Shown here piece after piece: positions 20,999 through 58,578 of a DNA stretch of 64,000 nucleotides. Made by a program: the position numbers and the translations under genes. This DNA is from a virus (taxonomy: Duplodnaviria > Caudoviricetes). Below the pieces are notes generated by a model that was given only the letters and a program-made list of their open reading frames with translations, ran no database searches and was not told where the DNA came from. The first letter of the stretch is position 1, and each line of letters begins with the position of its first letter. Where the stretch lies: positions 13,903-77,902 of IMG/VR virus record IMGVR_UViG_3300047160_018490. One strand, 5' to 3'.

Positions 20999-21017
20999 AA
21001 AAGGGAGCAATCTCCCT
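20999..21017 (-). terminator. short intrinsic terminator after the second capsid gene
   Basis: Minus strand AGGGAG-ATTG-CTCCCT followed by TTT; overlaps the stop codon. Confidence 0.45.
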
Positions 21018-39000: not shown

Positions 39001-42000
39001 GGTCTCTGCCACCCAAGGGGTGCTCGTCCGTCCTCCAGATGTCATGGGTGCCTGGTACGTTGGGGCGCTCCACAATCTTGTACCAGGGCGGGCGGTCTTT
39101 TCTCACTCCTGAAGAGAGGGCATCCTCGTGGTGCTGTGGGGCATCCCACTGCTCGGGGTCTTCATTTCTAGACCATTCCAGTTGCCGTAACCCGGCTTCG
39201 GCACTGGCTTCCTCCCTGGAGTCACGGGTTGTGAGGGGGTAAGACATCAGTCCAGGAGTGGCGTAGGGATGGTGCTCACTCCTGTAGACTCCCCATCTCC
39301 CTTCAGGGGTCTGGCGGACGTGGAAGTAGCGGTATCCTTTCTCCACTCCTTCGGAGAGGGCATGTGTAACAGGAAGACCATGTCCATGACCGAGGTCATC
39401 CGTTCTTACCTTCTCCAGGTCCTGTGCGCCATCCAGGGCGTCTTCCTCGGTGTCATAGCGGGTGGGTCCCACGGGAATGGTTTGATCCCCAGACTGGAAG
39501 AAGGGATGAGACTCAGTGCGGAAGATTCCATAACCCTCCTGATAGGGCTTGACCTCGAAGAAACCCTTCTCCACTCCTGAAGAGAGAGCAGCCTGCAAGT
39601 ATTGAGGTGGGGGATGGTGTAGCGCCCTATCTTTGATACTCTCCGTTGTATCTTCCACCAGAGACTGAGCCTCTTCCCTGCTTCCCAGGAGGTAAGTGTT
39701 TACCCGCATTCCAGGTCTTCCCCAGGGATGGTGTGCAGTACGGTAAACACTCCAAAAAGTCGGGTGGTCCTCGTCTTCCCGTGCCTCGTACCACGGGCCT
39801 TGCTTCTCCACCCTCTCCTCTAACCCCCTTGCTATCCTTTCCCCCGGGGGAAGCATGGAGAATGGATGCTCTCTGGGGTTGCCTGTGCCTCTGGGGGCGT
39901 CATCATACTCCGGGCCCAAAGACTCCATGTGCCTGGCCCAGTCTCTGGCCTCTCCGTGATCCAGGAAGGAGAGATGAGAGTGCCTCACTCCTGAAGGGGA
40001 GACAACCTGGAAGTGACCCATATCCGGGTCATGCTCCACGCTCCACTTACCGGATGGTTTGTCTTCTATTGGAGGGACGTAGGGGGCGGTGGCGCCTGTG
40101 CTCTCTTCTTCCTTTCCTTTCTCCACACCTCCAGAGAGGGAGTTCTCCTCGACCTGGAGAGGGATGTCACTGATCCCTGGTTCTTCTTCACCGCGCCACA
40201 GGTCGTACTGTCTCTGCCCAGCAGCGATCCAGGCATCCTCGTGGCTGGCATGGGTGGAGAGAGGCGCCTCATCAGGCCCATGAGGGCCGTATGGGTGGCG
40301 CCCACTTCGGTAGACTCCATACCCTCCTTCTGGGGTTGGGAGGACCAGGTAGTGGCTGTAGTTCTTCTCCACCTCTTCTCCCTGATAGACGATGGAGCCG
40401 TATGTGCCCTCAGAAGGCTCCGTCTGGCCGCCGAGGGAGTTCTCCTCGATGTCCGGAACATTCACGCCCCTGTTTTTTCCCTCCTTGTACCAACCATCTA
40501 CTGCGTCCTGGAGTCTGTCTGCTCTCTCCTGCTGCTCTTCCAGAGTGTTGGGACGGAAGGGGGTTATTCCCTCTCCCATAGGATGGTGCTCAGTACGATA
40601 TAGCAGGTACAGCTTACCACCTGGGTTCTGTACAATCCGGTAGTAGGGCCTCTGGAGGGCTTTCTCCACTCCCTCCAGGGCGTCCTCCAGATCCATCCTC
40701 TCCATGAGGGTCCTGTGTGTCTGATCGTGCAGCCTCTGGGCTTCTTCCTCGGCAAGACCCTGGGTGGTATGGTCTGGAGACTCGGGAGAGGAGAGTCTTC
40801 CCTTGGGGTGGTAGGAAGACCTCCATACGTCGTAGTTCCCAGCCGGGCGCTGGTGGACCTCGTAGAAGTAGTGTGGGGATAGGTCCTTCTCCACACTGCC
40901 TTCCAGGGCATTCTCCTCATAGGCTGGAAGGCCCTGCCCCATGCCCAATCTCTCTGTCTGCATCCTCACCTCGCTAGCCGTTAGCTCGCGTGCCATGTCG
41001 TGGGCAGAACCCTCCTCAAGGCCTCCGATGATAACCATTCCTGCGTCACCACCTGGGTGGGTGGCAGAGCGGCGGACCTCGAACTGACCCTGGCGCCGGC
41101 CTTCGTGGACCTCATAGTAAGAAGGTGGTTCAGGAGTACCCTCATCTTTCTGCACACCTCCCTCCAGAGCGTGCTGCACAGGAGGGGTGTAGGGGAGGCC
41201 CTGACTCTGGCCTGCCCAGTCTGTCTCTATGCTACGAGAGCGTGCAAACCTTCTCGTCCTCTCCTGTGCGTCTGCCTCTGCCTGCTCTGGATCCTGGAAG
41301 TGGGTGATCCTGGCCTCTCCATAAGGGTGCTGGGAGGTACGCCACACCTCATGCCTCTCCCCTCTGGAGCGGACCTCGTAAAGGGGAGGAACTCCGGTGT
41401 CTTTCTCCACCCACCCAGAGAGGGAGTGCTGCACAAGGGGTGTAGGTGGTAGACCCTGCTCTCTTCCCAGTCTGGACGTGTCCATGTTCTGGTAGCGAGT
41501 GGCCCCCAGACGGTAAATATCACTTATAGTCCTGGCACGTTCGCCTGCCTCTTCCTGGGTTGAGTAAGGACCCATACCAAGGTCCTCCCCACGAGAGGGA
41601 GCGTAGGGGTGCTCCTGAGAGCGGCGAACACGCCATCCTTCTCCCTCCACCTCGTAGGGCTCATAGAACTGGGGGAGCTTCTCCAGGGCGGTGGCTACCT
41701 CCTCAGGAGTGGCACCAGCTTTCTCTATACTTCCTTCCAGGGAGTATTGCTGTATGTGAGGGGGTTGGTTGACTGGTAGACCCTGGTTTTGCCCCAGTTC
41801 GTCTGTCAGTCTCCGCTCCCACCTTCCTGCGTAGTGCCTGGCATCCTCTTCCAGGTGAAACCTGGCCAGGGGGGAGTCTCCGTGTTCGCCAACCATCGAG
41901 GTTGCATTCCAGGGGTGGTTTGCTGTCCGGAAGACGCCATAGCCGCCCGCATGCGGGCGGACCTCGTAGAAGGACTTTTCCACGCTGCCTTCCAGGGCGT

Positions 42001-42229
42001 TCTCCTCTGGAGCTGGTGTCCTCCGGTGGCCGCCTTGGTTCACGTTTGCCTTGTCCTCATCCTCGTAGCTCTCATCGAGCTGCCTGGCTGCTTCCCTTGC
42101 AGCATCCTGCCCCCAGCGTGCAGGAAAGACCATGCTCTCCCCCATATAATGCAGGGCCGTCCTCCAGACCTCCCAGCGCCCTGCTTCCTGGTTGTAACGA
42201 GGCTCATAGGTAGGAGATGCTTCACTCAT
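33062..42229 (-). CDS. giant 3055 aa modular repeat protein, putative internal-head polyprotein
   Basis: Single uninterrupted ORF. About 25 modules of YEVR..x..YGVYR(T/S)..HP...T.EEA...A and about 8 modules of P(D/E)E.W.....W..L.Q..R, joined by ..(A/S)LEG.VEK or EEEK linkers. Confidence 0.9.
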   Translation of the reverse strand: MSEASPTYEPRYNQEAGRWEVWRTALHYMGESMVFPARWGQDAAREAARQLDESYEDEDKANVNQGGHRRTPAPEENALEGSVEKSFYEVRPHAGGYGVFRTANHPWNATSMVGEHGDSPLARFHLEEDARHYAGRWERRLTDELGQNQGLPVNQPPHIQQYSLEGSIEKAGATPEEVATALEKLPQFYEPYEVEGEGWRVRRSQEHPYAPSRGEDLGMGPYSTQEEAGERARTISDIYRLGATRYQNMDTSRLGREQGLPPTPLVQHSLSGWVEKDTGVPPLYEVRSRGERHEVWRTSQHPYGEARITHFQDPEQAEADAQERTRRFARSRSIETDWAGQSQGLPYTPPVQHALEGGVQKDEGTPEPPSYYEVHEGRRQGQFEVRRSATHPGGDAGMVIIGGLEEGSAHDMARELTASEVRMQTERLGMGQGLPAYEENALEGSVEKDLSPHYFYEVHQRPAGNYDVWRSSYHPKGRLSSPESPDHTTQGLAEEEAQRLHDQTHRTLMERMDLEDALEGVEKALQRPYYRIVQNPGGKLYLLYRTEHHPMGEGITPFRPNTLEEQQERADRLQDAVDGWYKEGKNRGVNVPDIEENSLGGQTEPSEGTYGSIVYQGEEVEKNYSHYLVLPTPEGGYGVYRSGRHPYGPHGPDEAPLSTHASHEDAWIAAGQRQYDLWRGEEEPGISDIPLQVEENSLSGGVEKGKEEESTGATAPYVPPIEDKPSGKWSVEHDPDMGHFQVVSPSGVRHSHLSFLDHGEARDWARHMESLGPEYDDAPRGTGNPREHPFSMLPPGERIARGLEERVEKQGPWYEAREDEDHPTFWSVYRTAHHPWGRPGMRVNTYLLGSREEAQSLVEDTTESIKDRALHHPPPQYLQAALSSGVEKGFFEVKPYQEGYGIFRTESHPFFQSGDQTIPVGPTRYDTEEDALDGAQDLEKVRTDDLGHGHGLPVTHALSEGVEKGYRYFHVRQTPEGRWGVYRSEHHPYATPGLMSYPLTTRDSREEASAEAGLRQLEWSRNEDPEQWDAPQHHEDALSSGVRKDRPPWYKIVERPNVPGTHDIWRTDEHPLGGRDHQGKPIWGGGPYTSTQEAQEVIDRIQAQLAENVSLRTEDIHRRNEEEKGFHDKPYYGVRDENGRPRIFRTPDHPNIHQYPSDRVPHRHLTPEEARELARDMHEDTVQSRMDQATWEESQKVAGGSVSKDTSPPWFTVQQNEDDPERYDLHYSEHHPHGRAGRYSGFGGYTSHEEAAAGARWATQHARQQEATRRHYANLVSQQRTEAANIPAEEENALSGAVEKSFYHVQESEENPGTFDVIPTMFHPEGRDARSLTGYRTQHEAETIAHIAEENLLETIWAPNKEMKKQNHPWWRVEEDPHIPGAYQIVRTEQHPLGQAGLRTGGFRTPEEAHRQVEQFAENSLDELAMQDRHAEENRQWVRDTEGTPPRYQMEPEREEKALDPKTGEKMEPFYELREHPSIEDFDALYRTGSHPEGGRGRLASHLHPHWEAEDMARDYQEAAHQRIMSGELQGPDNPRVNLPAPEEKDSTEDPLTGQDEPLYEARRTGIEHLPYEIVHARTGRHVYYAATPEEVRYCTSQLNWRHGSMGVVDETPHPSEKDANQADMEAGRGTPGEIDRTGIPPETNPGEGSDIETGDTPELEVEKKVDVIYRPGRTVYPYLVRHTRANGEVWFTSSHQTQAEAEAEAEKVREFEKWGDQTEVPEDESGTIAEKKCKRLWDRLQRRKQSLHWRVVPNEDGTHSLVDPDGNRDVGRYELEEAQQRADELNAHADRYTDNPGRGHWTGEQYFQAWDQGKEEKAVDPKTGKRVQGVAYRFLVGHNPDLNHPYENRVSPIPREKAEGGEESPGHFYVRPSEEQPELYQVASRRTGVGWSLHCTQAEAEEEAERQNQRAQESINRMAHLSPNCTPLNPAEEEKDLEGEEIRKPNVEHPHHYHTERMERCIADLEAEGADAGKAHRVCYSSLEEAGEKPNKGLEGVEEKADPKTGELRFYETRLSPVRPGRYSVYRTREHPAFHSHGEGPVTGPMTEEYAGGIARNYESMYEDPDLHLPPEEEENALEEGVEKAPKVEGEEEQGAVVTANPGHPYWDVEPTEEGAHAVTPSEHHPLRRNIENPQNPLPPHQTAEEAHAHARRLQEGMWATMTGTARARRGRGVQNRPARNEQLPGIEGKAIHDLRTGRPATWYHMVEREDEPGTFDVHRSPQHPAGMTHDPVFVAQNIDEANDWIGDMHYQLAHSAGYRRLDAEKGVQKQPEGNPAITANPGAPYYEARPHHEQPGRYGVYPTEFHPHFGPEGTFDPEHPYFFGSAGDHDTLAEAQAHADELNRGRTINEAEDAPLRPPAHIRPGINEQIPGIGEKVAPQYRRLKARLERRKEEGQPFRRAPDEVWESERRYREDRGSGSGRKWENLTQGQRDLVPGMVRDPGFHPSEQSEIQEYPEWEPLEEEKAPRSHDEAWESARRRGTTGLHWRDLNQNLRDYYAGLRQHTGYVDPYDEDTPPEEEEGEGERGSPLGENEPPEWAYPEEEEKAPRTPDERYQTSRHQSQERYGRTGSEGRPWEGLSQSTRDRQATRYAHEEDEGPHRAEATVVSDFEEEKAPRSLDDWYESFRRRHPIGYFGPREPWEEISQTGRDVLQGVSPETGFHPEPAHHSEHPSHLEYPEWEEYQPGEHERFLEEGKASITPDEVWETHRRHDIDREALNPGVHVRPTWSEMSQGYHEGCRHPLPTPRHHSEASEDEEYPEWEEHTPGPFEREEYYEGVEDEEKQSSNPPPRSPEERWESHRRYWEEQHPQHPLTPWEGLSQGERQSNRQYFQMVGDPGPHPSEHTVEPEEEEKAAHDPYYEAWEHDARNPKPPTSEPYWEEWEHPPSSSPGEKVDPYWEEWEKAEGEEEEEHLPAETPYNDPSERYGRASEYLAEHYPEIGPGAAWDRMPQGERGHIADLYSHLPHGALFGEGGEEEENALEGDVEKQPEEEYHNDAEPDPMTRWENARAAHPIQDPNHPNYPRPWHELTQEARTSIAAFYEHLPHGYLYGEE

Positions 42230-45200
42230 ACCCCTATCCTCCTTGCGAGGGCCTCGATGCGATGGAGGAGTTCAGGAGAGAAGGCTTTATCAGATGGCTT
42301 TGGGGTTTCTCTGTACTGCCGGTTGTGACGCTCCACCCAGTCCAGGAGCCCACCCAGGTGACTCGACTGTGACCACAAGGCTTCACCACTGGGCCTGTGG
42401 ATGATCTGGTAGAGGCCACTCAGGTGAGACTCCTCATGGGGACGCACCTCGTAAATGTCCTCTGGGTCCTCTACCCAGGTAATATCTTTGGGGTCCACCT
42501 TCTCTATGCTCTTCTCCTCCTCCACCTCTCTCTGAAGGCTCCTGATGGTTGCGCCTGGGCCCTGGGGGATTTCCTCTGCCCGCAGAGGTCTCCTTCTTGG
42601 GGCGCCTCCTCCTGCTTGCGGTAGAGGAGGAGGAAGAGAAGCAGGAGAAGGAGGTGGAGTCTTCTCTGGGGCGCGCCTATTCGTGTGCAGGAGGAGGTTA
42701 CTCGCTGCCTGGTTGTGCAAGTGGCTTACGTAGGAGTTGGCCCTATCCAGGGTGTCAGTCCTTACAGCCGGCTCATCACTGGCGCCCATAGGGTGATGTT
42801 CACTCCGGTGAATCCCGTACCCACCTTCTGGGTGGTCCCTTACCTCGTAGTAGGGCATCTCCGGTGGCCCTGGCTTCGATGCTGTGGACGGTTGTGGAGG
42901 CTCTTCTCCCTGACCCGCGCCCACGTCAAAGGGCGCGTCCTCAGGGTTCTGATGCACGAGCGCTGTGGGCTTGGCTGGACGGCGGGGTAGTGGTGGCGGT
43001 CCCTTCTGCAAGCTCTTCATGGTCTCTGCCTCTGTAGTGAGCTTGTTTGCCAGGGCCCTCTGGAGGCGGTCCCTGTTCTCTTCTGCTCTGTACCAGTCCG
43101 TCCACGCTCCTACGGGTGGGCCACCAGTAGGGGGTGCTCCTGAAGGGTGATTGGAGGTCCTGAAGACCCCGAAGCGGTCGTTCTCCGTGGGATGGGGGAG
43201 GACCTCATAGAGGGCGGGGAAGTCCTTCTGGATGGCCTTGTGGTACTCGGCGGTATCGGCTGTCTCATCAACGTAATTGGCATGGAGTCCCCTGGCAAAT
43301 CGGTGAGCCTCCTCTTCCGTTCCCGTATCTAGGATCGGATACCCCTCTCCAACACCGTAGGGGTGGCTTTCCGTGCGGTAGACACCAAACTTACCATTCT
43401 TCATAGGGCGGACCTCATAGTAGAGGGCCTTCCTGGCTGCCTTATGCTCTTCCTCCCGGACAGTGCGCAGGTTCATGTAACGGGCGTGCATTGCGCGGGC
43501 ATACTCTGCAGCCTGTGCCTCATGATCCGTCTGATAGACCGGCGCCTCTTCAGGACCCCAAGGGTGAGTGTCTGTACGATAAACTCCATACAGGGGAGGG
43601 TCATCATTGGTAGAGCGGACCTCGTAGATGAGTTTCTTCCTCACTCCCTTTTCAGGAGTAGACTCTCCTCCCTCCCATGCCCGCAGAGTGCCTGGGGCGT
43701 CCCAGTAGGCACAGCAATTCCTCTTGTTGACTGGCTGACCCTTGATGCGCTTCTCCTGGCAGATGCCGCCCTGGTTGTACTGGCAGTTACCGCAGTTGCT
43801 GCCCTCCACTCCTTCCCCGTAGGTGATGAAGTCCGCCGCCTGTAGAGCTTCAGAGGAGACCTGGGGAAGCTCGCCACCCTGGGTATCGAGGGCCTTCCTC
43901 GTTTCACTTGGAGAGCCTTCGGCGGACTTCCCGATCTCGTCAAGGATAGCGTGTGTATCTAGATAGCGAGCATGAAGACGCCTGGCTTCTGCGTAGGCTT
44001 CCTCCTCCGAGTGTGTTTCATAGATGGCATAAGGGTACTGCTGCTGCTGCGGGTGGCTTGGCGAGCGGTGGACTCTGTAAAGGGTAGAGCCCTCATCAGG
44101 AGGCCGCACCTCGTAGATGAGGGCCTTCTCCACCACATCCTTCTTGCAAGGGCATGCCTTCCCCCTGGAGCAATTCTTGCAGCCGCAGGAGCCCTTGAAA
44201 TGTTTTGGAATGCGGTGGAGGAACCCTGGATTGTTCTCTGAGTGCTCTCCTACAGGGTCCTCGCTCTCTTCAGGATGGGGAATAAGATCCTCTGGAGGGT
44301 CTATACCCTGAAGTGCTTCCCCAAACGTGGGAGACCTTGTGTCACCTTCCAGCCTGGCCAGTTCCCGAGAACGCCGAGCTATCCTAGCCTCCTCGGATGC
44401 AGAGGTATACTGAGGATCATATACCCAGTCTCTTGGGTGTCCGGACCCGAAAGCCCATTCCCTTTCATCTGTGGCAAAACCTTCTGGGGTGTATTCGTTA
44501 TGATGAGGTCCCACCCCTTCTGGCCTGTCTGCCTTTCTTAAACCTTTCTTGTCCTCTCCAGAAGTAGGAGGGTCCACATCACCTTCCAGCACCTCTCTCG
44601 CTTGCATCTCCCGAGAACGCTGATTGATGCGAGCCCTTTCACTAGCCATGCTGATTGGGGGAATATCGTGGCGCCATTCCTCTGGATTGGGGCCATAGGG
44701 AGGGTGCCAGTCCCAATCTTCCTCATGCTCACCAACAGTGCCCCATTCCGGGTCGTGCTCTGGCCTCCCTATCTCGTTGGGGTCTGGCTCAGGCTCAGAG
44801 GCCGCCTTCTCCTCGGGACCCTCTATCTTGTCCAGGTCCTCGGCCCTTCGGTTGATCCTCTCCATCTCCTCTTCAGGAGTACCCTTGGGATCACGCTGCC
44901 ACTGGTGAGAAGAGGACTCTCCGTAATCCCTGCTGGCCCGATCTGCGGTTGCCTGTGCCTGCTCCAGAGTAGTGCCAGGTGGCTGAGGTATGTCGTGTCC
45001 ATACTCAGTGTGTCTGATGTAGGTCCCGCCATTTGGGTACTGCCCCGCAGCCCAGCGCCCCTTCTGGAGGTCCTTCTCCTCCTCCTCGATGGGTCTCCCC
45101 TGCTCGTCTGTATCTTCCACAGCCCTCAGTGTCCCTGAGAGACGGTTTATCCTCTCCGTCTCTGCTTCATGAGTGGTGGGTGGTGCATTCCCCCCAATGA

Positions 45201-48200
45201 ACTCGAATGCTCCAGCCATGTGCCTCTGGTTCCCGCGATCTGCCTGCTGTTCTGCGGCTTCCTGGTTGGCAATGCCCTCATGGACTCGATTGCCAGTGTA
45301 GGTGTCCTGTATGTACCACTGGCCGGTGCCATCGTTGTAGGGTTGAGCCCTGTAGCGAGGAGCCTTTCTCACAGCCTTCTCCTCGGGCTCACTTTCATCC
45401 AGCTCCTCTGAGTGGCGTGCAACCCTCTCTGCCTCCTCCTGGGGACTACTCAATGGCTCTCCCTGCCAGGAGGAGGCCGGGTGAGATTCCATCTCGTGGA
45501 GCTTGTTAGCCCTGTCTGCACTGGCCTGGGCTGCCTCTCTCCCTCCTGGGTGAGGGTGGTTCCAACCTGTGTGTGAGTCATGGATGACAGTCCCGTGCCG
45601 CGGGTGGTCCTGAACTATGTAACGCTGCTTCTCTACCACCCCTCTCTCAAAAGGGGAGGGGCCCTCTCTTCTCCCTCTCTTCAGGCCCTTCGCCATCACC
45701 CCAGGGTAGCCCAGCCTTCCTCTCTCCCCGCGAGAGCGAAGGGGGTTGTAGTTGCTGCCCTCCAGTTGCAGCCTCGTGATGAGTTCCTTCTGCTCCTCCA
45801 CCTTCTTGAGGGCCTCCATGAGGGCCTTCTCAGGAGGTAGCCCATCGTGCTCTGAGAGGGACTCAGCAAACTTGGCAAGCTCGTAGCAGTGTGCTCCGGA
45901 ATAGCCTTCCGTCTTCGCCACCGCATGAGAGAGATGTTTAGGTGTGACCTTGGGCAGCCACTTCCTCAGCATCTCACTCCTGGCCTTCACCGTGGGGAGC
46001 CCAAACTCCAGCACGTCATGGAACCTCCCAGGGCGGTCAATGAGGGCATCTGGAAGGGACTCAGGGAAGTTGGTCGTTAGTACGGTAAGGACACCCTTGC
46101 TCCTTGCAATACCGTCCATCTCCGTCTTGAGGAGGTCGATGGTGGTGGGGTGAAGCCAGTTGTCAACGTCCTCCATGCAGATGATGGCCGGTGCCAGTTC
46201 CTTCGCCATCTCGAAGGCACTACCAATACCACCTACACTCCCAGCGGCGTGGAAGTCCCTGCTAGAGATCCAGATGAACGTGCCCTTGCTCTTGTTGCGC
46301 AGCACCCGCGAGGACATCGTCTTGCCAGTGCCTGGAGGGCCGGTAAGGATCACGCCTCTGTTGGCAAAGAGGATGCCCTTCTCATTGAAGAGATCCAATG
46401 TCCTTCTAAGGGAGGTCTTGTTGTGCTCCTCCAGGAAGACATCGTCCCAACCCTCCTCCGTGCGGGGGAGAAACTCCCCTGAAAGAGAGAAGGCTTCTCC
46501 TTTGAGGAAGTTATTCTCCCTCGCCCAGGTCCATGCTTTATCAATCACCTCCTGAGAGATGGGAGCTTCCTGAAGTCTGGTAAAGGCAGTCACCTTCAGC
46601 CCGTTCCAGGTGGGCTCGAACTTCAGGACGAACTTCTCTCCACTACCTCGAAAGGCGTTGTGAGGCCCTCTACCTTTCTCCTGGTAGAGAGGGCTTCTTC
46701 CCAGGATGCCCTTCCTGATCTGCAATGGCATGCCCCTCTTGATAGGAAGCATCCCCTCGAAGAAGGCTGTCCCCTGCACGAGGAAGGTATCTCTTTGGGT
46801 GGAGTTGAGCTGGATGGTCTCGTAGACAGGGGGCGCCTCCATGCCCTTGCTCTGGTAGCCCTCCTGGAAGTTCCTCACCTCTACCAGCTTGTACCCAGAG
46901 ACTGCGTGCTTGAGGCCAGTGAGGAAGGAGCCCAGTCTGGGAGAGGGAATGAGGGCGGTGTTCTGGACGAGGTCCTTTATCTCACATCCCAGGTACTTGG
47001 CCGCCACCCGGTAGATGACAGAAGCACCCACAGGAGGGGCATCCTCCATCTCCACTCCTGTATCGAAGGAGTCGAAGATAGAAGGGAGGGCCTTGTTCCA
47101 GCGCTCCCTTTTCCTTACCTCTCTCCCGGGGGAAATAGCATGCTCATGGTGTGGCTCATCACCCCAGTTGTACTCCTCTTCCTCCTCGGGGTCGAAGTGA
47201 GACATCCCCCCTTCCATTGCATCACTGGCACAGTCGTCACAGAAGTGCGCCTGGTCACTGGGCTCATCGTACTGGGGGTTGTACATGCGGGTGGTAGCAG
47301 GCCGGGTGCAGGCTCCTGAATGGTGGGGGCAGCCTGGGTCGTCACACTCGCAGGTTCCGAGGTTCTCATGTTCAGGAGTGTGTTGACCTCTGGAGCGCAG
47401 GAGTTGCTCCTCACCCTCGATGGGGATGGCGCCCTTCTCTACCTGCTTCTGAATGCAGGAAGAGGGGGAAGACTCCTGACCTTTCGTAACGATGGTGCTG
47501 CAAGGGACGCAGACGCCGCTGGGAGTCTCGCACCATCCATTCCAGCAACCAGATGCCTTTGCACAGTAGGGGAGCCACGCCTTCTGAAGCCTGGGAGACA
47601 TCCAGACCTTCTCCTGGTCATAAGCGTCCCTGATGGCTCCCTGGTTGCTTCCTACCCCTACCACAGACCATTCTGTAACGTCATACCTCTTGAAGAGCCA
47701 CCCAGGCGGCATGAGAGGAGGATGCTGCGGGTGGGCCTTCCCGCTATCGAAGTCCTTCAGACCATAGTGCTCTCCTCGCTCCCTCCTGTAGGCTTCGATG
47801 GGCACGAAGGCGATGCTGGCAGCGGAGAGTATCCTTCTCTTCACCTTGCCATAGATGAAGTCCGCATCCGGATCAGCGCGATCAAAGTAGCCTACTGCAC
47901 GTATCCGGTTCTCTTCAGGATAGACAGTGATGCGCCCATCGGGGGAGCGAGATACTCCAATAGGGATCTCCCACCCCTGCTGCTGGTGGCCGAAGAAGAT
48001 GACCGGGTTGCGTGCGTAGTTCTCCAGTTGGGCGCCCAGAGGCACCACCACGTCACCATCCCTATCCTCATCCAGGTTGGTGATGACGAAGGGGATGCTG
48101 CCTTCGTCATCGTTTGCTTCCCCTGGGAGAGCAGCTCCTGGAGTAACGAGGCCGAGGGTGTTTTCCTTCCCAAGCTGGACCCAGGAGTAGGCGGAGAGGG

Positions 48201-48333
48201 CCTTGGGAAGGGAAATGACCCCCCTCCGCGTCATCTCCTGGAGGGAGGTGTAGCGGTCCTGAACCTTGTCAATGACTGGGTGGAGGATAATAGGAGAGCC
48301 CTCAAGGAGAAAAGTGGGCAAAGAGGCTCGCAC
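42226..48333 (-). CDS. HK97-type prohead serine protease fused to an AAA+ ATPase and repeat modules (2035 aa)
   Basis: Protease: DRDGDVVVP, NPVIFFGH (His), LSAASIAF (Ser), EWSVVGVGSNQGA. ATPase: GVILTGPPGTGKT, IICMEDVD, TTNFPESLPDALIDRPGRF. The C-terminal region carries YEVR..YRT..HP modules. Confidence 0.9.
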   Translation of the reverse strand: MRASLPTFLLEGSPIILHPVIDKVQDRYTSLQEMTRRGVISLPKALSAYSWVQLGKENTLGLVTPGAALPGEANDDEGSIPFVITNLDEDRDGDVVVPLGAQLENYARNPVIFFGHQQQGWEIPIGVSRSPDGRITVYPEENRIRAVGYFDRADPDADFIYGKVKRRILSAASIAFVPIEAYRRERGEHYGLKDFDSGKAHPQHPPLMPPGWLFKRYDVTEWSVVGVGSNQGAIRDAYDQEKVWMSPRLQKAWLPYCAKASGCWNGWCETPSGVCVPCSTIVTKGQESSPSSCIQKQVEKGAIPIEGEEQLLRSRGQHTPEHENLGTCECDDPGCPHHSGACTRPATTRMYNPQYDEPSDQAHFCDDCASDAMEGGMSHFDPEEEEEYNWGDEPHHEHAISPGREVRKRERWNKALPSIFDSFDTGVEMEDAPPVGASVIYRVAAKYLGCEIKDLVQNTALIPSPRLGSFLTGLKHAVSGYKLVEVRNFQEGYQSKGMEAPPVYETIQLNSTQRDTFLVQGTAFFEGMLPIKRGMPLQIRKGILGRSPLYQEKGRGPHNAFRGSGEKFVLKFEPTWNGLKVTAFTRLQEAPISQEVIDKAWTWARENNFLKGEAFSLSGEFLPRTEEGWDDVFLEEHNKTSLRRTLDLFNEKGILFANRGVILTGPPGTGKTMSSRVLRNKSKGTFIWISSRDFHAAGSVGGIGSAFEMAKELAPAIICMEDVDNWLHPTTIDLLKTEMDGIARSKGVLTVLTTNFPESLPDALIDRPGRFHDVLEFGLPTVKARSEMLRKWLPKVTPKHLSHAVAKTEGYSGAHCYELAKFAESLSEHDGLPPEKALMEALKKVEEQKELITRLQLEGSNYNPLRSRGERGRLGYPGVMAKGLKRGRREGPSPFERGVVEKQRYIVQDHPRHGTVIHDSHTGWNHPHPGGREAAQASADRANKLHEMESHPASSWQGEPLSSPQEEAERVARHSEELDESEPEEKAVRKAPRYRAQPYNDGTGQWYIQDTYTGNRVHEGIANQEAAEQQADRGNQRHMAGAFEFIGGNAPPTTHEAETERINRLSGTLRAVEDTDEQGRPIEEEEKDLQKGRWAAGQYPNGGTYIRHTEYGHDIPQPPGTTLEQAQATADRASRDYGESSSHQWQRDPKGTPEEEMERINRRAEDLDKIEGPEEKAASEPEPDPNEIGRPEHDPEWGTVGEHEEDWDWHPPYGPNPEEWRHDIPPISMASERARINQRSREMQAREVLEGDVDPPTSGEDKKGLRKADRPEGVGPHHNEYTPEGFATDEREWAFGSGHPRDWVYDPQYTSASEEARIARRSRELARLEGDTRSPTFGEALQGIDPPEDLIPHPEESEDPVGEHSENNPGFLHRIPKHFKGSCGCKNCSRGKACPCKKDVVEKALIYEVRPPDEGSTLYRVHRSPSHPQQQQYPYAIYETHSEEEAYAEARRLHARYLDTHAILDEIGKSAEGSPSETRKALDTQGGELPQVSSEALQAADFITYGEGVEGSNCGNCQYNQGGICQEKRIKGQPVNKRNCCAYWDAPGTLRAWEGGESTPEKGVRKKLIYEVRSTNDDPPLYGVYRTDTHPWGPEEAPVYQTDHEAQAAEYARAMHARYMNLRTVREEEHKAARKALYYEVRPMKNGKFGVYRTESHPYGVGEGYPILDTGTEEEAHRFARGLHANYVDETADTAEYHKAIQKDFPALYEVLPHPTENDRFGVFRTSNHPSGAPPTGGPPVGAWTDWYRAEENRDRLQRALANKLTTEAETMKSLQKGPPPLPRRPAKPTALVHQNPEDAPFDVGAGQGEEPPQPSTASKPGPPEMPYYEVRDHPEGGYGIHRSEHHPMGASDEPAVRTDTLDRANSYVSHLHNQAASNLLLHTNRRAPEKTPPPSPASLPPPLPQAGGGAPRRRPLRAEEIPQGPGATIRSLQREVEEEKSIEKVDPKDITWVEDPEDIYEVRPHEESHLSGLYQIIHRPSGEALWSQSSHLGGLLDWVERHNRQYRETPKPSDKAFSPELLHRIEALARRIGV

Positions 48334-48390
48334 GGACGCAGGCGAGCGCAGCGAGGCTCTATCACTCTACGGGCTGAAGATGGGTGGCGT

Positions 48391-48630
48391 CTACGCTTTC
48401 TTCCTCATCACCACCTTGGGCCCACTCTTGCTGGGAGATCTCTCTTTGCAAGAAGGGCACTCAGCGTAGGGGCATCCCTCCCAGAAGGGCATATCTTTTC
48501 CTTGCTGAGGAGTGGGCGCAGGAGTCACCTCCCTCCTGGGGAGGAAGAAGGTTTGCTTGCAGACGTGGCAGACCCCGAAGAGGATCTCCTCAGGGTCTGC
48601 ATCTTCAGGAGGTTTGCGTGGGAGGAGCAA
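48391..48630 (-). CDS. small Zn-ribbon protein
   Basis: CHVC...CPYAECPSC. Confidence 0.5.
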   Translation of the reverse strand: MLLPRKPPEDADPEEILFGVCHVCKQTFFLPRREVTPAPTPQQGKDMPFWEGCPYAECPSCKERSPSKSGPKVVMRKKA

Positions 48631-48820
48631 AGATGTGATCCTTGAAGTGCTCGTCCAGATAGGTAGAAGCCTGCTCCTTTACACGCACTCTCTCTGTCTC
48701 CGTCAGGATTCTCCCACACTCTCCACAGGAGAAGTGGTCAATGAGAATGACACTCCTGGCGGCCTGGAAACACTTGCAGTAAGGACAGTAGAAGTAGGTG
48801 GTCATAACGCCTCCCCACAA
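48605..48820 (-). CDS. small Zn-ribbon protein
   Basis: YCPYCKC...FSCGECG; probable start MTTY. Confidence 0.5.
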   Translation of the reverse strand: MWGGVMTTYFYCPYCKCFQAARSVILIDHFSCGECGRILTETERVRVKEQASTYLDEHFKDHIFAPPTQTS

Positions 48821-49083
48821 GGGTCTGCGAGAGGGTATGCCTTCAGGAAGCGTAGGGCGTCATTCACACTCTCGAAGTATCGCAGCTTGGGACCATCGAA
48901 TACCAGCCCATTCTCCATGCCCAGGGAGACGAACCAGCGGGGCTTCTCACCTTCTTCCATCTTCTTCTTCCTGCGGCCTACCTTGCTCTGGAAGATAACC
49001 GGACCCTGGAGCCTGTAGGGCCCAGGACAGAGCCAGTAGGTGCCATAGGCGTCTGGTTCAGGAGTGGCGTTAGGTAGAAGCAC
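48802..49083 (-). CDS. hypothetical protein
   Basis: Co-directional 93 aa ORF overlapping its neighbours. Confidence 0.4.
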   Translation of the reverse strand: MLLPNATPEPDAYGTYWLCPGPYRLQGPVIFQSKVGRRKKKMEEGEKPRWFVSLGMENGLVFDGPKLRYFESVNDALRFLKAYPLADPCGEAL

Positions 49084-49720
49084 TGGTGCCCCCTGACAGC
49101 GTCTTGAACTGGATGGCGATGTGAGCCCACTTGCTCATAGTGGCCTTTGCTGGGGTGAAGAGGTAGCGGCAATCCTTCAGGAAGGCGAGGGCCTTCAGAC
49201 AAATCTCCTCCTTCTTCTTGCAATCCTCCAGGATGGCCTCGCTCTCTCTTTTCCCCTGGGCCAGCATATCCTCCAGCACGTTCTGTGCCTCGCCCTTCAC
49301 CAGGAAGCGGTTCTGGGCTCTCATGATGGCGTCGATGGAAGCCTTGCAGGAGCCTTTATTTTCCCTGATGGCATCGAGGGAGGCTTGTACTTTCCTCCTC
49401 ATCCAGTCTACGAGGTCAATCTCCTCCGGCTTGCCATATCCCTTGGCACACTCCTGAATGCACGCCCCCAAGGTGTTGTTCAGGATGACCACCACCTGTA
49501 AGAAGGAGTTGTCAGCCTGGGCGCCGAGGTCCCCTGTGCGGTCATAGTTCGCCCTTCTCTCCTCATCTGAAAGGACATCGTAGGCGAGCTGCACCTCCTG
49601 GAAGACCTTCACATCCCCTCCCCTATCGGGATGGGACTTCATGGCCTTCTTGCGATAGGCTTTCTTCACCTGCTCAGGGGTAGCCTCTTTGGGGATACCC
49701 AGTACCACATACGGGTTCAC
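49070..49720 (-). CDS. J-domain (Hsp40 class C-like) protein
   Basis: MNPYVVLGIPKEAT.EQVKKAYRKKAMKSHPDRGG...FQEVQLAYDVLSDEERRANYD with an intact HPD; helical C-terminal domain. Confidence 0.92.
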   Translation of the reverse strand: MNPYVVLGIPKEATPEQVKKAYRKKAMKSHPDRGGDVKVFQEVQLAYDVLSDEERRANYDRTGDLGAQADNSFLQVVVILNNTLGACIQECAKGYGKPEEIDLVDWMRRKVQASLDAIRENKGSCKASIDAIMRAQNRFLVKGEAQNVLEDMLAQGKRESEAILEDCKKKEEICLKALAFLKDCRYLFTPAKATMSKWAHIAIQFKTLSGGTSAST

Positions 49721-49722
49721 GG

Positions 49723-50994
49723 TTACCGCTTTCTGTAAAGGGGAGACTTACGGAGGATGCTCTTGCTTTCCTCAGGAGGGGGAGGAAAAGCGGGCTCTTC
49801 CTTCCCGGGACGCAGCCTAATGCGAGACATACCCGCCGCTGTCCTTCCCTGGTCAGAGTCCGGGTTGTTTGACCCTCTGGACCCTTCTGTACCTGCTGGA
49901 GACCGAGCCCTTTCACCTTCCAGGAGCATGTCCTCTTCGATCTGGGTAAGCGGGTCAGGAGTATGCTCTGGTTGCTTCTCCACTTCTTCCTCTGGAGGGG
50001 CTTCCTCTTCCAGATCCCTTTGCATACGCTGACCCTCTGGGGAATTCCAGAACCGTAACCTCTCCTGCTCTATACTCCCCTCCGAGCGTCCCGCTGAGGA
50101 GGCCGGGTTGTTGGTCCCACGGGCACCTCTTGTACCAGCACGGGACGGTCTCTGCTCGTGCTCTCGCTGAGAACCAGGCACCAGAGGAGGCTGCTTCTCC
50201 ACTTCACCTCCCATCAGCTTCCTTACAGTGGCAAGGGGTATGCCCTTTCTCACAGCCTGACGCATGAGGTTACTGAGCTGCTTCTTCAGCTCCTTCACGG
50301 CATCGGTATCTGTTACCACTTTCCCCTCCCCATTACCAGCAGCAGTACCCTCTTTCCTCATCATGAACTCGATGCGTGAAGCCTTCTTGTGGGCCTCATC
50401 ATAGCCCATCCCTCCCTGCATGAGCTTCCTCTCCGCTGTCTCGTGCATGAGGGTATACTCCTTCTCGTTCTCCGAGAGGGTGTCCTCCAGCCAAATCTCA
50501 TCGCGGGGAACCCAGGGGTAAACTTCCCCATTGCCGCCCTCCACAAAATCAGTCTTGTAGAGGTCCCTCACCTTGTGGCCGTCCACCAGGTAAACCTTCA
50601 GCCCCTCCTCGGGAAGCTCCTTCCAAAGGGATGTCCTCACGTCACTCAGAGCAGGGCCGCCTTCCTCGCCCTCGCCTGGTTGCCGGCCGCCAGAAGATAG
50701 GCCCTCTTTCTCTCTCTCAGCCCGTTCTACACTCTGGCCTCTCTCATAGGCGTCATCCTCTGAGAGACCACCCTTCTGTGCCCTCTCCACAGCCAGGGCG
50801 CCATCTACCAGGATGCGCCTCTCCTCTGGCTCTACATTCTCGTCTAACCACACCTCTCCGGGGGGAATAAGGGAGGGAAAGTCAGAATGCAGCCCCACCA
50901 CGCCGAACTCCTGGTTGGTAAGGCCAGAGGAGCGTATCTTCTCCGCGTTTACCAGGTGGACGCGGGTGCTCTTTCTGTACTCAGGAATGGGCAT
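49723..50994 (-). CDS. head-associated protein with a duplicated domain (one HExxE...H copy) and C-terminal VEKQP repeats
   Basis: IPPGEVWLDENV / VPRDEIWLEDTL duplication, LMHETAERKLM...YDEAH motif, and two VEKQP...RG.NNP.S..GR units; directly after the portal gene. Confidence 0.7.
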   Translation of the reverse strand: MPIPEYRKSTRVHLVNAEKIRSSGLTNQEFGVVGLHSDFPSLIPPGEVWLDENVEPEERRILVDGALAVERAQKGGLSEDDAYERGQSVERAEREKEGLSSGGRQPGEGEEGGPALSDVRTSLWKELPEEGLKVYLVDGHKVRDLYKTDFVEGGNGEVYPWVPRDEIWLEDTLSENEKEYTLMHETAERKLMQGGMGYDEAHKKASRIEFMMRKEGTAAGNGEGKVVTDTDAVKELKKQLSNLMRQAVRKGIPLATVRKLMGGEVEKQPPLVPGSQREHEQRPSRAGTRGARGTNNPASSAGRSEGSIEQERLRFWNSPEGQRMQRDLEEEAPPEEEVEKQPEHTPDPLTQIEEDMLLEGERARSPAGTEGSRGSNNPDSDQGRTAAGMSRIRLRPGKEEPAFPPPPEESKSILRKSPLYRKR

Positions 50995-53317
50995 ACGCCT
51001 TCCCGTTACTCTTCTCAGGTTGCAGGTGAAGCCTGTTCAGGAGTGTGGTGTAGTCTCTTCCCAGCGTCCTGGAGAAGGTGGAGAAGACCTCCCTCGCCTT
51101 CTTCCACGAGAAGGGAAGGATCTCATCCCTTACCATCGTCCCCTTCAGCGTCTCACCTACGCCCAGCACACATTCTGCAAGGGCGGCACCAGGGAGCGAG
51201 CCCCAGAGGCTATTAAAGCTCGCCCCTGATGACCACCCCGCGGTCCCCAACAGGAGACCAGCACCAGGCGCACTCCACAACGCCTGCCCCGACATGAGGA
51301 CCATCATGGCACCAGGAGAGCCATACTCCTTCACCAGGTTGGTGGTAAAGCCCTCCGCTCGCTTCTCCAGGAAATGAGAGGCTGCATCTAACTGCTCCAG
51401 CGTCTTTCTGTCTTTGATGGCTCTGAGGGCTTGCTGGTGTTTCAGGAGTGTGCTCCCTGCTCTGTGAAGAGATCTGGACAGGCGTGCAGAGAAGCTCCTA
51501 TCGAGGCTTCTCCTATCTACCCTTTCCCCCGGGAAGGACTTGAGGAACTTTCTGGGAGGTCCAGCCTGCATGGCCTGGGAGTTGGGGTTTTCCACCTCGC
51601 CACCACCGGCTTCCATCTGCTGGCCGTTTCCGCCTCCCTCTTCTTCCTCGCCCTCTGCACCTTCTTCCCCTTCTGGAGGCAGCATGGGCTGAGGCATCAT
51701 GGCCTCCAGGTATTCCCCCATCGCCAGGTAGGGCTCGATGGGCTCCTGAGCGTTCACAGCCCAGGGGGTGAGGCCACCTGGCCCTGCAATCATGGGGTTG
51801 TCGCCACCGAAGCGATAGGGCTTGCGTCCTCGCAGGGCGCGGACCTCGTTGGGCGTGATGGCATAGAACGCCCCGTCTACCTGGAGGTCTGCGTTCACCT
51901 GCTGGGGATCTGCGGGGACACAATCATCCCACCAGAGCCGTACATAGCGAGCGCCATAAGTGCCTCCAGCACTACCATCCCCGAGGGCCCAAGCAGATCG
52001 GGTTGAGGCAGGCTCGTCCCACTTCTTCGCAAGGTGCTTGGTAAGAGTCTGCCCCCTCTGCGCCAGCCTTGGATTGAAGCAGTTGCTGCACAGGGCGGCC
52101 AGCACGGCAAGAACACTGCCATACGTCATGCCCTCACTGATACCGATGGCGGTCTTGGGGACGTGGAAGGCAGCCAGGATCATGTCACGGATCTGCTCCT
52201 CCGATTGGAAATAGGCCATCTCCGTGGGGGAGAAGGAGAGAGGTGTGATCTTCGCCCCAGGAGGGGTGATGACTGGCTTACCGTAGTTGTATTCTCCCTG
52301 GATCTTGCTCATGAACTTCGCCTCCAGACGAGCTATCCTGTTGTCGTCTGGATCTTCGTAGCCCTCGCCCAGCTCCACCCAAAATTCTGGGCGGGCCTGG
52401 TTCATGAACTGGGACCATCTGGACTTGGAGATGGACTCCTCGCTGTCGATCCACTGCGCCACCGCGGCGAGCTTGGCATAGCCATCAATCTTGTTGATGG
52501 GGCTCTTCCACCGGGTCATGATGACTTCATCAGGGGGAAGGCGCAGGATACCCGCACTCCCCATCCCACCCCAGGGGCGTACCTCGTAATACTGGATGAG
52601 TTCATCGAAGTGAGGGTTATCAGGAGGTACATAGGAGTATCTGTAACGGAGGTAATCACCAACCTCTTGCCCCTCGTCGTAGCGCCTCAACTTGTCGTAG
52701 TCGATCCTGTTGCCGCTTCCTCCTGTGCGTGGCCATACCCAGTGGCTCGGGATGACCCACAGCTCGCATGGGATGCCCCACCTATTGGGGACCATCCAGA
52801 TGTAATCTACCCCGCAAAGCTCAGAAAACATCTGAGCTTCGTAGGCAAAATCAAAGGCTGTGTCGTGCTTGTTGGGGTTCTCGATCAGCTCGCGGAGGGT
52901 GTGGTCTCTCTCCAGTGGCTCCAGCTCCTCGTGGGGCTTCACCACAGAGAGGGCCTTACTCCTGTATGCCCCCATCGTGAGCCAGGAGTATCCACCCTCA
53001 GTCACCCAGGAATCCTGCCCAAAGCCACCACCCATGAAGCGATGAGCAGCCTTCTGGGTATTGGGACCTGGCATGTCTGAGACGTATGCCATGTTGGGCA
53101 TCATGCCAGCCATCTTGCTGCAGATGAGGTCTATGGCAACGAAGCACCAGTTCCTCATGTGGAGGACTTGTTCCAGGCGATCTTGTGACCATCCCCCAGG
53201 CCAACCCGTTCCCCTGTTGGGGAAGAGGGAGGCCATGATGCGCTCGCCCTTGGCTGCACGCTTCTCCCTCAGGCCCCTGATGGACCTGAGTGCTGGGAGG
53301 TATTTGTCTACGCGCAT
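50981..53317 (-). CDS. HK97-family portal protein with a C-terminal extension
   Basis: NWCFVAIDLICSKMA, ELIENPN, LWVIPSHWV, LPPDEVIMTRW..P...DGY, PTEMAYF, AAFHVP and ITPNEVRALRG.KP motifs. Confidence 0.9.
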   Translation of the reverse strand: MRVDKYLPALRSIRGLREKRAAKGERIMASLFPNRGTGWPGGWSQDRLEQVLHMRNWCFVAIDLICSKMAGMMPNMAYVSDMPGPNTQKAAHRFMGGGFGQDSWVTEGGYSWLTMGAYRSKALSVVKPHEELEPLERDHTLRELIENPNKHDTAFDFAYEAQMFSELCGVDYIWMVPNRWGIPCELWVIPSHWVWPRTGGSGNRIDYDKLRRYDEGQEVGDYLRYRYSYVPPDNPHFDELIQYYEVRPWGGMGSAGILRLPPDEVIMTRWKSPINKIDGYAKLAAVAQWIDSEESISKSRWSQFMNQARPEFWVELGEGYEDPDDNRIARLEAKFMSKIQGEYNYGKPVITPPGAKITPLSFSPTEMAYFQSEEQIRDMILAAFHVPKTAIGISEGMTYGSVLAVLAALCSNCFNPRLAQRGQTLTKHLAKKWDEPASTRSAWALGDGSAGGTYGARYVRLWWDDCVPADPQQVNADLQVDGAFYAITPNEVRALRGRKPYRFGGDNPMIAGPGGLTPWAVNAQEPIEPYLAMGEYLEAMMPQPMLPPEGEEGAEGEEEEGGGNGQQMEAGGGEVENPNSQAMQAGPPRKFLKSFPGERVDRRSLDRSFSARLSRSLHRAGSTLLKHQQALRAIKDRKTLEQLDAASHFLEKRAEGFTTNLVKEYGSPGAMMVLMSGQALWSAPGAGLLLGTAGWSSGASFNSLWGSLPGAALAECVLGVGETLKGTMVRDEILPFSWKKAREVFSTFSRTLGRDYTTLLNRLHLQPEKSNGKAYAHS

Positions 53318-57177: not shown

Positions 57178-58578
57178 CTATCTTATCCAGAACTCCTTCT
57201 GAACCCCTCTCAGGTGGGAGATGATATATCTTAGCGCATCTAGCCGGTGATAATCCTCCTTGTCTTCGATGTCCTCAGTGGGATTGCTGGCGTCATCCAG
57301 CTCGCGGGAGTAGTTCTGGAACTCATCAATCAGGCCGGTGCAAGAAGAGAACACCCTGAGCTGGTCCTGCTTCAAGGTGGCGGTGACTCTGTTGATGCCT
57401 ACCTCCACGTCCTTGATGGGTGGCGCGTTCACGAAGAGGCCGCCTACCCTAAACTCTTCTCTCCACTGGTCTTCGGAGTGGGAGCCACCATAAGCCTTCG
57501 GGCGCCTGGTAGCTCCGGCTGGACCTAGAGGGTCCTCACACACTTCACCCTTCAGGAGTGCCTCCACATGCTTCTTCGCCGTCTGGGAGACCCATCTCCC
57601 CTCTTTGGGATATTCCCTGTAGCAATAGAGCTTGCCCGTCTTGTTGCCGTTGGCATCCAGTTCGGCTGCAAGGAAGACTCCTGCTGTATGCACTCCTCCA
57701 AAGTCCAGCCCTAGATAGCGTGGCCAGGAGTGGGGAATAGAAAAGGGAGCACACACATGCCTCTCAGTGAGGAAGTCCTCATAGATGATGCCAGCCGGTC
57801 GCTCGAACTCCCCGTCATAGAACATCTTATGCTTCCAGGTGGGGAGGATGGCCTTCGTCCTTTCATACTCCTCCCGGGGGAAACAGGGATTCTCGATACT
57901 CCGAAATTGCACCACGTCGATGTAGGGGTGGGAGTGGTCTGGCTCATCTTTATCCTTGCAGGAGCACAGCCTCCTCTGGCACCTTCTCCACGGCTCGAAG
58001 AGGAGGTTACGCAACCATCCCAGGGTATAGGGGGTGGTGGTGATGAGGACGCGCCCCTGGTGGATGGAGAGGCGCCGCTGGACTGCTTCCCAGGTCTCCA
58101 GCTTGAACTTCTTCTGTCCGGCCTCATCCAACCAGGCTGCCTTCGCAGTGGCACTCTCGATGGAGTCCGGGTCCATTGCGTGACCGAAGAAGACCTGGGT
58201 GTCTTCCGAAGTCACATGGCCATAAAGACTTCTGGCACCATGCGCGTTGAAGAGGAAGCGACTCTGAAAAGAGCCCCTCCCCGTGAAGTCACCCCAGCGG
58301 CACTGGGTGCGAAAGAGCCTAAGGAACTCCGGAAAAAGCTTGAGGGAGAGGAGGCGGAAAGTGGGGGCTACCACCAGGTAGTCTCCTGGCCCCTTTTCCT
58401 GCACCTCTCTGGATAGCCAATAGGGCCCAAATGAGGTTTTTCCCGATTGCGCCCCAGAGAGGACCAGTATTATCCTCTTCCTGGAGTTCCATGCCCTCCA
58501 CTGCCCTCGGTGGAAGTTGAGGTGCATCACTCCTGATGAGTCTACGTAACTCAGTGGCCGTACTAGAGTTGCAACCAT
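57178..58578 (-). CDS. terL: terminase large subunit
   Basis: Walker A SGAQSGKTS, Walker B AAWLDEAG, coupling motif TTTP, nuclease GLDFGG and C-terminal YHRLDALRY. Confidence 0.95.
   Translation of the reverse strand: MVATLVRPLSYVDSSGVMHLNFHRGQWRAWNSRKRIILVLSGAQSGKTSFGPYWLSREVQEKGPGDYLVVAPTFRLLSLKLFPEFLRLFRTQCRWGDFTGRGSFQSRFLFNAHGARSLYGHVTSEDTQVFFGHAMDPDSIESATAKAAWLDEAGQKKFKLETWEAVQRRLSIHQGRVLITTTPYTLGWLRNLLFEPWRRCQRRLCSCKDKDEPDHSHPYIDVVQFRSIENPCFPREEYERTKAILPTWKHKMFYDGEFERPAGIIYEDFLTERHVCAPFSIPHSWPRYLGLDFGGVHTAGVFLAAELDANGNKTGKLYCYREYPKEGRWVSQTAKKHVEALLKGEVCEDPLGPAGATRRPKAYGGSHSEDQWREEFRVGGLFVNAPPIKDVEVGINRVTATLKQDQLRVFSSCTGLIDEFQNYSRELDDASNPTEDIEDKEDYHRLDALRYIISHLRGVQKEFWIR

Follow-up and report, generated by a model that had tools for sequence, protein, structure and literature searches.

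Introduction

The assembly and maturation of HK97-fold capsids are taught as spontaneous, protease-driven processes, with ATP spent only on DNA packaging. Canonical prohead proteases of the HK97 gp4 type (MEROPS S78, PF04586, TIGR01543) are stand-alone, ATP-independent proteins of ~200-250 amino acids (aa); S78 proteases are not known to form chambered rings docking onto an unfoldase, and assemblin-fold proteases depend on dimerisation. In lambda C/Nu3 and other protease-scaffold or protease-capsid fusions, the protease shares one chain with an organiser of the shell interior and is removed by self-processing, and to our knowledge none of these fusions carries an NTPase. Here we describe a gene in a 64-kb stretch of viral DNA (positions 13,903 to 77,902 of IMG/VR virus record IMGVR_UViG_3300047160_018490, a linear record of 77.9 kb that is ~77% complete), to which we refer as the window. 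The product of this gene resembles HK97 gp4-type proteases in its DRxGD motif, in its His/Ser/Glu catalytic positions and in its place in a head module beside portal and capsid genes, but the protease makes up only the first tenth of a 2035-aa protein and is followed by an AAA+ module. Compared with lambda C/Nu3, the ATPase replaces, or adds to, the scaffold part.

The described ATPases closest in fold to this module are Bacillus subtilis YjoB (PDB 7W42) and mitochondrial Bcs1 (PDB 6UKO/6SH3). YjoB and Bcs1 'exceptionally' carry ED rather than DE in their Walker B motifs (Kwon et al., PMC9565160), and are chambered ring ATPases that hold or move folded proteins; YjoB, a chambered holdase, is an active ATPase whose activity is abolished by E280Q and D281N (PMC9565160). 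Bcs1 is a heptamer and translocates folded protein through its chambered ring. Jumbo phages also encode stand-alone BCS1 orthologues; Iyer et al. 2021 (PMC7824862) suggested that these bind folded proteins on their way to the head and translocate them.

A protease and an ATPase in one reading frame

We found in the window one genuine gene, predicted from its domains to encode a head-morphogenesis polyprotein and hereafter called the fusion gene. Its features are as follows.

42226..48333, minus strand: fusion gene (P0001), a single stop-free open reading frame (ORF) of 2035 codons comprising protease, linker, N-domain, AAA domain and repeat tail
47464..48291, minus strand: conserved protease module, residues 15-290, with the S78/HK97 prohead protease core at ~75-245
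47986-47988, 47815-47817 and 47671-47673, minus strand: catalytic codons for His116, Ser173 and Glu221, respectively
47104..47463, minus strand: variable, acidic, Cys/His-rich linker, residues 291-410, beginning just past IVTK|G (281-285)
46399..47103, minus strand: family-specific N-domain, residues 411-645, an alpha/beta sheet domain that begins with a RWNK..FD motif
45724..46398, minus strand: classical-clade AAA+ domain and lid, residues 646-870, ending in QLEGSNYNP
46318-46341, minus strand: Walker A GPPGTGKT, residues 665-672
46162-46185, minus strand: Walker B IICMEDVD (ED type), residues 717-724
Asn755, and Arg767/Arg770 in DRPGRF: sensor-1 residue, and the paired arginines
42229..45723, minus strand: lineage-specific tail, residues 871-2035, with a first repeat in three copies and six YEVR-type modules of ~60 aa (1403-2022)
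Residues 281, 879, 899 and 1400: candidate cleavage motifs IVTK|G, VMAK|G, VVEK|Q and VVEK|A, respectively
42229..42279, minus strand: C-terminal amphipathic helix SPELLHRIEALARRIGV, the last 17 residues of the fusion protein, a candidate capsid-docking peptide

A preliminary description of this DNA had reported an in-frame protease-AAA fusion at 45700-48333. The fusion itself is real, as the ORF is continuous and the join recurs across database proteins, and neither GC content nor composition shows a break across it; the range, in contrast, takes in only the first ~878 of the 2035 codons and leaves a repeat tail of ~1150 residues outside. The N-termini of homologues (M-[IL]-LHP) align at residue 15 of the fusion protein, the codon of which is ATT (48291) with GAGGG 7 nt upstream; for these reasons the true start is probably this ATT or, alternatively, the GTG at 48333. 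The database gene call (P0002) starts at Met34 (48234), removing ~19 conserved residues, and the real start may be non-canonical. We rejected Met34 as the start, since those conserved residues would be cut off.

The N-terminal block is, on its profile matches and conserved residues, an S78/HK97-type prohead protease. It matches PHROG 80 ('head maturation protease') over residues 89-233 at E 1.2e-8 and TIGR01543 (proheadase_HK97) at E 1.2e-5 with 25 bits, under the 59-bit cut-off of the latter model. Pfam PF04586 gave no match on the fusion protein itself at E<1, and no Pfam family was found on the protease and linker; PF04586 scores above its gathering threshold in the aligned homologues P0016, P0024, P0033, P0034, P0036 and P0037. 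Among 54 homologues, DRDGD (90-94), His116 (in FFGH), Ser173 (in ASIAF), Glu221, Ser223 and Asn230 are at least 90% conserved, which agrees with the earlier recognition of an HK97-type protease from the His in FFGH and the Ser in AASIAF. Domain searches of the fusion protein gave no match to M41, S16 or S14, the self-compartmentalising families that supply the protease in AAA+ proteases of the FtsH, Lon and ClpXP type.

BLAST against the retrieved relatives recovered two conserved blocks, ~15-290 and ~411-870, separated by an unconserved linker. The borders of the second block are sharply conserved, with (D/E)P(I/V)RWNKSLS..FDV at its start and QL.GS.Y.P(R/K) at its end, and PF00004 is matched within it (E 4.8e-16, residues 661-778). 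All features of the classical AAA clade (PF00004) are present, namely Walker A, Walker B, sensor-1, the second region of homology including its two arginines, and the helical lid. In 34 family members GPPGTGKT, hhhhED(V/I)DNW, TTN, DRPGRFH with both Arg, and GYSGAH in the lid are invariant or nearly so, the hhhhED Walker B being found in all 34. Because these motifs are invariant across proteins that share only 35-70% identity, the ATPase active site is, as far as sequence can tell, complete and under purifying selection. The alternative of an inactive ATPase was rejected, every catalytic motif being intact. The preliminary description had also recognised a complete AAA+ module preceded by an N-terminal domain, and this too held, the N-domain matching 243 clusters (at 50% identity) at E<=1e-10.

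Two features vary within the family. At the pore-loop-1 position, where unfoldases have aromatic-hydrophobic-Gly, P0001 has H-A-A, and H-A-S also occurs among its near relatives; in other members the residue is H, Y or W, with a variable one after it, and in many of them it is aromatic (Y/W). Inteins (PF14890) lie directly past Walker A in P0017, P0029, P0035, P0040, P0043 and P0045.

Similarity of the ATPase to YjoB and Bcs1

Residues 405-885 were modelled with AlphaFold2 from 47 sequences (pLDDT 87, pTM 0.81; pLDDT 86-87 in the AlphaFold2 models covering the N-domain). The eight best Foldseek hits to the module model are YjoB, at the top (E 2.9e-18), and Bcs1 (ranks 4-8), with E values from 3e-18 to 2e-14; the alignments to YjoB and Bcs1 take in 417-451 of 481 columns and so include N-domain and AAA domain alike. 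The sub-threshold leads in the ESM Atlas include a cluster named 'Putative ATPase YjoB'.

YjoB resembles the module in having an N-domain joined to one classical AAA domain and an ED Walker B, and it is the highest-ranking fold match over both domains, but its N-domain has no detectable sequence similarity to ours, and it is a stress protein free in the cytoplasm of Bacilli, neither viral nor joined to a protease. Bcs1 likewise has the ED Walker B and a middle domain before the AAA domain; unlike the module, which is preceded by protease and linker, it has a transmembrane anchor and BCS1_N, neither of which was detected here. The stand-alone BCS1-like ATPases of cultured and jumbo phages (for example those of ANB28 and 98PfluR60PP) also have the ED Walker B and align with 26-28% identity reaching the end of the N-domain, but they are unfused proteins of ~480-490 aa encoded among early/replication genes, with no physical link to a protease or capsid protein.

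On this evidence the module rather probably belongs within the classical clade as a Bcs1/YjoB-like ATPase, without being an orthologue of Bcs1. The Walker B motif ICMEDVD, described earlier as a variant, has an ED that is invariant in the family and is a published hallmark of Bcs1/YjoB (PMC9565160). The analogy with FtsH/Lon/Clp systems drawn at the same time fits less well: the ED Walker B and the leading fold matches both point to YjoB and Bcs1, which are chaperones with a chamber, or translocases, that act on folded proteins, and not unfoldases of the threading kind that sit stacked on a caged protease, so that an FtsH/Clp-style unfoldase is the less likely analogy.

An abundant family in uncultured tailed phages

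With the first 880 residues as query, 73 clusters of 1119-3562 aa were retrieved, and the closest full-length relative (P0006) aligned over 98% of these residues. Using the module alone, we retrieved over 120 clusters of shorter proteins (E<1e-110); the majority have PF04586 and PF00004, and many have PF05065 as well. A phmmer search of 1.84 billion representatives with the N-domain found 272 clusters (50% identity), of which 243 reached E<=1e-10. We took a census of architectures in 271 retrieved cluster representatives using custom hidden Markov models (HMMs) for four domains. The order protease-Ndomain-AAA was found in 194 of the 271 (median 934 aa), and a triple fusion in which Ndomain-AAA-protease continues into the major capsid protein (MCP) in 21; a further 23 have a protease and long tail without the ATPase, and 18 have Ndomain-AAA only, many of these being fragments. 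The highest-scoring ESM Atlas cluster (0.94) is 96% viral.

No record in a set of 50,697 phage genomes, cultured or deposited, covers more than one third of the query, and among the matches listed none reaches the protease. The fusion is also undescribed in the literature that we searched, a search outside which most subscription journals lie. As judged from these searches, the fusion defines a large family of uncultured tailed phages that is abundant in databases yet so far undescribed. The preliminary description had noted that the novelty of the protease-AAA architecture would be lower if it were already common in databases, and there it is common. What is new is the protease-ATPase fusion; prohead proteases and phage Bcs1-like ATPases are each of known kinds.

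The fusion gene in the head module

The genes that place the fusion in the window are the following.

57178-58578, minus strand: large terminase, upstream of the fusion
50981..53317, minus strand: portal (PF04860, E 8.6e-30; PHROG 2662, E 3e-37)
Minus strand, upstream of the fusion: ORF of 423 aa, without a match
49070..49720, minus strand: J-domain (Hsp40-type) protein of 216 aa (PF00226, E 3.2e-20; TIGR02349, E 4.9e-20)
33062-42229, minus strand: ORF of 3055 codons downstream of the fusion, overlapping it by 4 nt
31135-33114, minus strand: ORF of 659 aa, downstream of the fusion
22476-24029 (517 aa) and 21016-22170 (384 aa), minus strand: MCP paralogues (PHROG 10, E 4.4e-32 and 1.6e-25, respectively)

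Since terminase and portal genes lie upstream and MCP genes downstream on the same strand, gene order assigns the fusion gene to the phage head module. In the relative L003 a gene for a 775-aa fusion stands between portal/MuF and MCP, and along L100, a 273-kb contig from a metagenome-assembled genome of Pirellulales, the genes run from portal and MuF through the fusion (784 aa) and MCP to connector, tail tube, tape measure and Dit. The fusion directly adjoins the MCP gene in L003, L100 and L091-L097, and in eight IMG/VR loci portal and fusion, fusion and MCP, or both pairs are adjacent. The gene order in these relatives indicates that the fusion gene normally fills the protease/scaffold slot between portal and MCP genes.

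L100 is probably a siphovirus-type prophage and gives a clue to a host in Planctomycetota/Pirellulales. A separate host search of 185,579 species genomes, with patterns that were too generic, returned 80 loci, almost all of them FtsH-like genes of Alphaproteobacteria, and L005 is an ordinary AAA gene.

In the triple fusions, the AAA-protease-MCP gene (1100 aa, at 2699-6001 of L002) is the only capsid gene seen in the L002 locus, and the same holds for the AAA-protease-capsid fusions P0034, P0037 and P0137 in theirs. Past the protease, the L002 protein has a typical capsid N-terminal coiled-coil arm, which begins at an internal Met641, and a nested second product may start there. By a rough volume estimate, a T=7 shell would be too small for ~415 copies of the 88-kDa extension; if so, most capsid subunits would come from the internal start, or the extension would be removed early.

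Genes and domains of chaperone type recur in these head modules. The window has the J-domain neighbour; the nearest full-length relative, P0006 (L004), has a Cpn10/GroES gene (L004:3341-3706) in its head region, together with two MCP genes; and the tails of several relatives end in DnaJ-type CxxCxGxG zinc fingers. This chaperone theme speaks for the role that we propose below. L086 also has two capsid genes.

Linker, repeat tail and candidate cleavage sites

BLAST of the linker (residues 291-410) gave no alignment to any retrieved relative. The Cys/His clusters noted in the preliminary description are present, with 12 Cys within residues 1-410, although the linker is unconserved among relatives, and on this ground a zinc-finger function of the linker was rejected. 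The tail, ~1150 residues past the ATPase, is common to no relative. With a custom HMM of its ~60-aa module, YEVR..G.Y..HP, we found six copies in the fusion tail (42229-44125), at least 22 in the 3055-aa neighbour and none in 269 other family proteins.

The motif h-h-x-K|small, a post hoc definition, occurs four times in the fusion protein, always at a domain border, against 0.7 occurrences expected by composition (none of 300 shuffles reached four). In 124 family proteins it is two to four times denser in the 60 residues past the ATPase than elsewhere, and both capsid proteins of the window have V-x-K|AA directly before the capsid fold. This pattern suggests a polyprotein that is cut by its own protease. 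Self-cleavage into pieces, one of the possibilities raised in the preliminary description, is thereby plausible, with candidate V-x-K|small motifs at the domain borders.

The C-terminus of the fusion, SPELLHRIEALARRIGV, is matched by the end of the 659-aa ORF (APEVLARIQALGRKI...), the two sharing the motif (S/A)PE(L/V)L.RI.AL.R.I. A comparable amphipathic helix, with (L/R)TG after it, closes the proteins of relatives whether or not these have the ATPase. We regard the helix as a candidate capsid-docking or targeting peptide.

A possible ATP-dependent step in head assembly

The reading that we prefer, and hold to be about evenly poised between right and wrong, is that the protease-ATPase polyprotein would act as a chaperone that uses ATP at a step of head assembly or maturation. 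Along with the capsid protein, the fusion protein would enter the prohead during its assembly, brought in by its C-terminal helix or, in the triple fusions, by belonging to the capsid protein chain. Inside, the ATPase would form a six- or seven-membered chambered ring, as YjoB and Bcs1 do, and the ring would spend ATP to hold, release or move folded domains, the candidate substrates being the scaffolding arm of the capsid protein, internal head proteins or the protease itself. Cutting by the tethered protease at V-x-K|small sites would free the modules and clear the shell for DNA. The net effect would be a chaperone step, requiring ATP, added to an otherwise ATP-independent maturation, and not a Clp-like degradation machine. 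Our confidence declines from prohead entry to the chambered ring, and again to the ATP-driven holding, release or movement. The suggestion in the preliminary description that the ATPase acts on a 'large core' does not carry over to the family, most members of which (median 934 aa) are without giant core proteins. A wider claim, that in a large group of uncultured phages a Bcs1-like ring, tethered to the maturation protease and in some lineages to every capsid subunit, performs an ATP-consuming step of HK97-type procapsid assembly or maturation by holding or moving folded domains inside or at the prohead, is possible but rather doubtful. It would then be the first energy-dependent machine for scaffolding or maturation known in tailed phages, the DNA-packaging motor aside.

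Several observations weigh against the chaperone step. Encapsidation, ring formation and substrates are all things that we infer, and the cleavage motif was defined only after the sequences had been inspected. The best PDB sequence matches of the AAA domain are AFG2, Cdc48 and VAT (E 1e-36); the NCBIfam PAN, CDC48 and FtsH models also match it, all far under their cut-offs; Pfam BCS1_N (PF08740) was not detected, and residues 261-640 match no Pfam family at E<=1. The distribution of the ATPase among close relatives is a further difficulty. In a maximum-likelihood tree built from 54 rows of the protease block (LG+C20), every deep branch carries the ATPase; within the subclade of P0001 (99/96), however, 23 ATPase-less and 15 ATPase-bearing proteins are interleaved, and the best tree needs six ATPase changes, of which at least three are forced by well-supported branches. 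The nearest neighbour of P0001 (P0046) and the neighbour of P0006 (P0063) are both without the ATPase, and P0047 keeps only the last ~55 lid residues, including the QLGGSTYNP end motif, a remnant that reads as a deletion scar. No separate ATPase copy was found in the 24.5-kb head locus (L086) of an ATPase-less relative. Given this repeated loss among the nearest relatives, the tree and gene content indicate that the ATPase is dispensable or replaceable in this long-tailed lineage, which weighs against an indispensable core role. The preliminary description had counted an AAA domain both inactive and dispensable as evidence against its reading; the intact motifs speak against inactivity, and the losses in the closest relatives speak for dispensability.

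The position of the gene can also be read without any remodelling of substrates. As an ATP-regulated scaffold or switch, the ring would be an oligomerisation platform that nucleates capsomers or the shell, or that gathers proteases so that proteolysis waits for assembly. The gene does lie in the scaffold position, relatives have no separate scaffold gene between the fusion and the MCP, the MCP fusion in 21 clusters would put six-fold rings under capsomers, and the general dependence of assemblin-fold proteases on dimerisation points the same way; yet the strict conservation of sensor-1 and both Arg fingers argues for hydrolysis rather than nucleotide binding alone, the conserved, putatively chamber-forming N-domain suggests a bound client, and we consider this role rather unlikely. 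The ED Walker B, and probably the same N-domain, point to Bcs1 and YjoB, which act on folded proteins (PMC9565160), and so count against a ring of FtsH/Clp type that would thread and unfold scaffold or core proteins and pass them to the tethered protease, the analogy of the preliminary description. The classical-clade unfoldases among the best sequence matches (Cdc48/AFG2/VAT, with the PAN and FtsH models) and the aromatic Y/W at pore-loop-1 in many family members would suit such a machine, which we nevertheless find unlikely: P0001 and its near relatives have H-A-A or H-A-S at that position, and docking of a chambered protease ring on an unfoldase is not known for S78 proteases.

A role after assembly is likewise improbable. 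Here the ATPase would be loaded into the head, cut free, kept in the virion and ejected with the DNA, and would act early on host proteins or membranes. Candidate cleavage motifs do flank the module, its neighbours in this phage are giant bead-on-a-string proteins that resemble internal or ejection proteins, and the stand-alone ED-type AAA proteins of cultured phages are encoded among early and not head genes. Most family members, however, are without giant internal proteins and have the gene exactly in the protease/scaffold slot, and in the AAA-protease-MCP fusions one ATPase per subunit could not, on our rough estimate, stay inside a DNA-filled T=7 head. The losses described above, the P0047 scar and the lack of a separate copy in the 24.5-kb locus would all be expected if the ATPase were a dispensable passenger, inserted as an accessory or now decaying and not essential to this phage; but its catalytic motifs are all intact in P0001 and invariant across the family, several members carry P-loop inteins, which are typical of genes under strong selection, and the family extends to ~250 clusters at 50% identity, so that this explanation seems very improbable. 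An assembly chimera or a frameshift joining two genes was rejected and is scarcely credible, as the same join recurs in hundreds of independently assembled contigs (JGI, ENA, NCBI, Logan) with no composition break.

If the chaperone step is correct, energy input would be added to the HK97-type capsid pathway in a family of ~250 sequence clusters. The fusion would also offer a compact and genetically tractable model for the poorly understood Bcs1/YjoB chaperones of folded proteins, with a minimal set of portal, MuF, a 780-aa fusion and MCP, and with the repeated loss of the module in the closest relatives providing natural controls.

Other features around the fusion gene

No family was found for the 3055-aa neighbour in Pfam and PHROG searches. 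The 737-nt interval 48334-49069 (minus strand) contains small ORFs with paired CxxC motifs of zinc-ribbon-like appearance, for example with an ATG near 48806 and an ORF at 48391-48630. Beside the capsid genes, 17072-20432 (minus strand) includes an ORF of 553 aa with a match to a PHROG methyltransferase (E 2e-13); in the relatives L002, L003 and L086, glycosyltransferase genes are found in its place.

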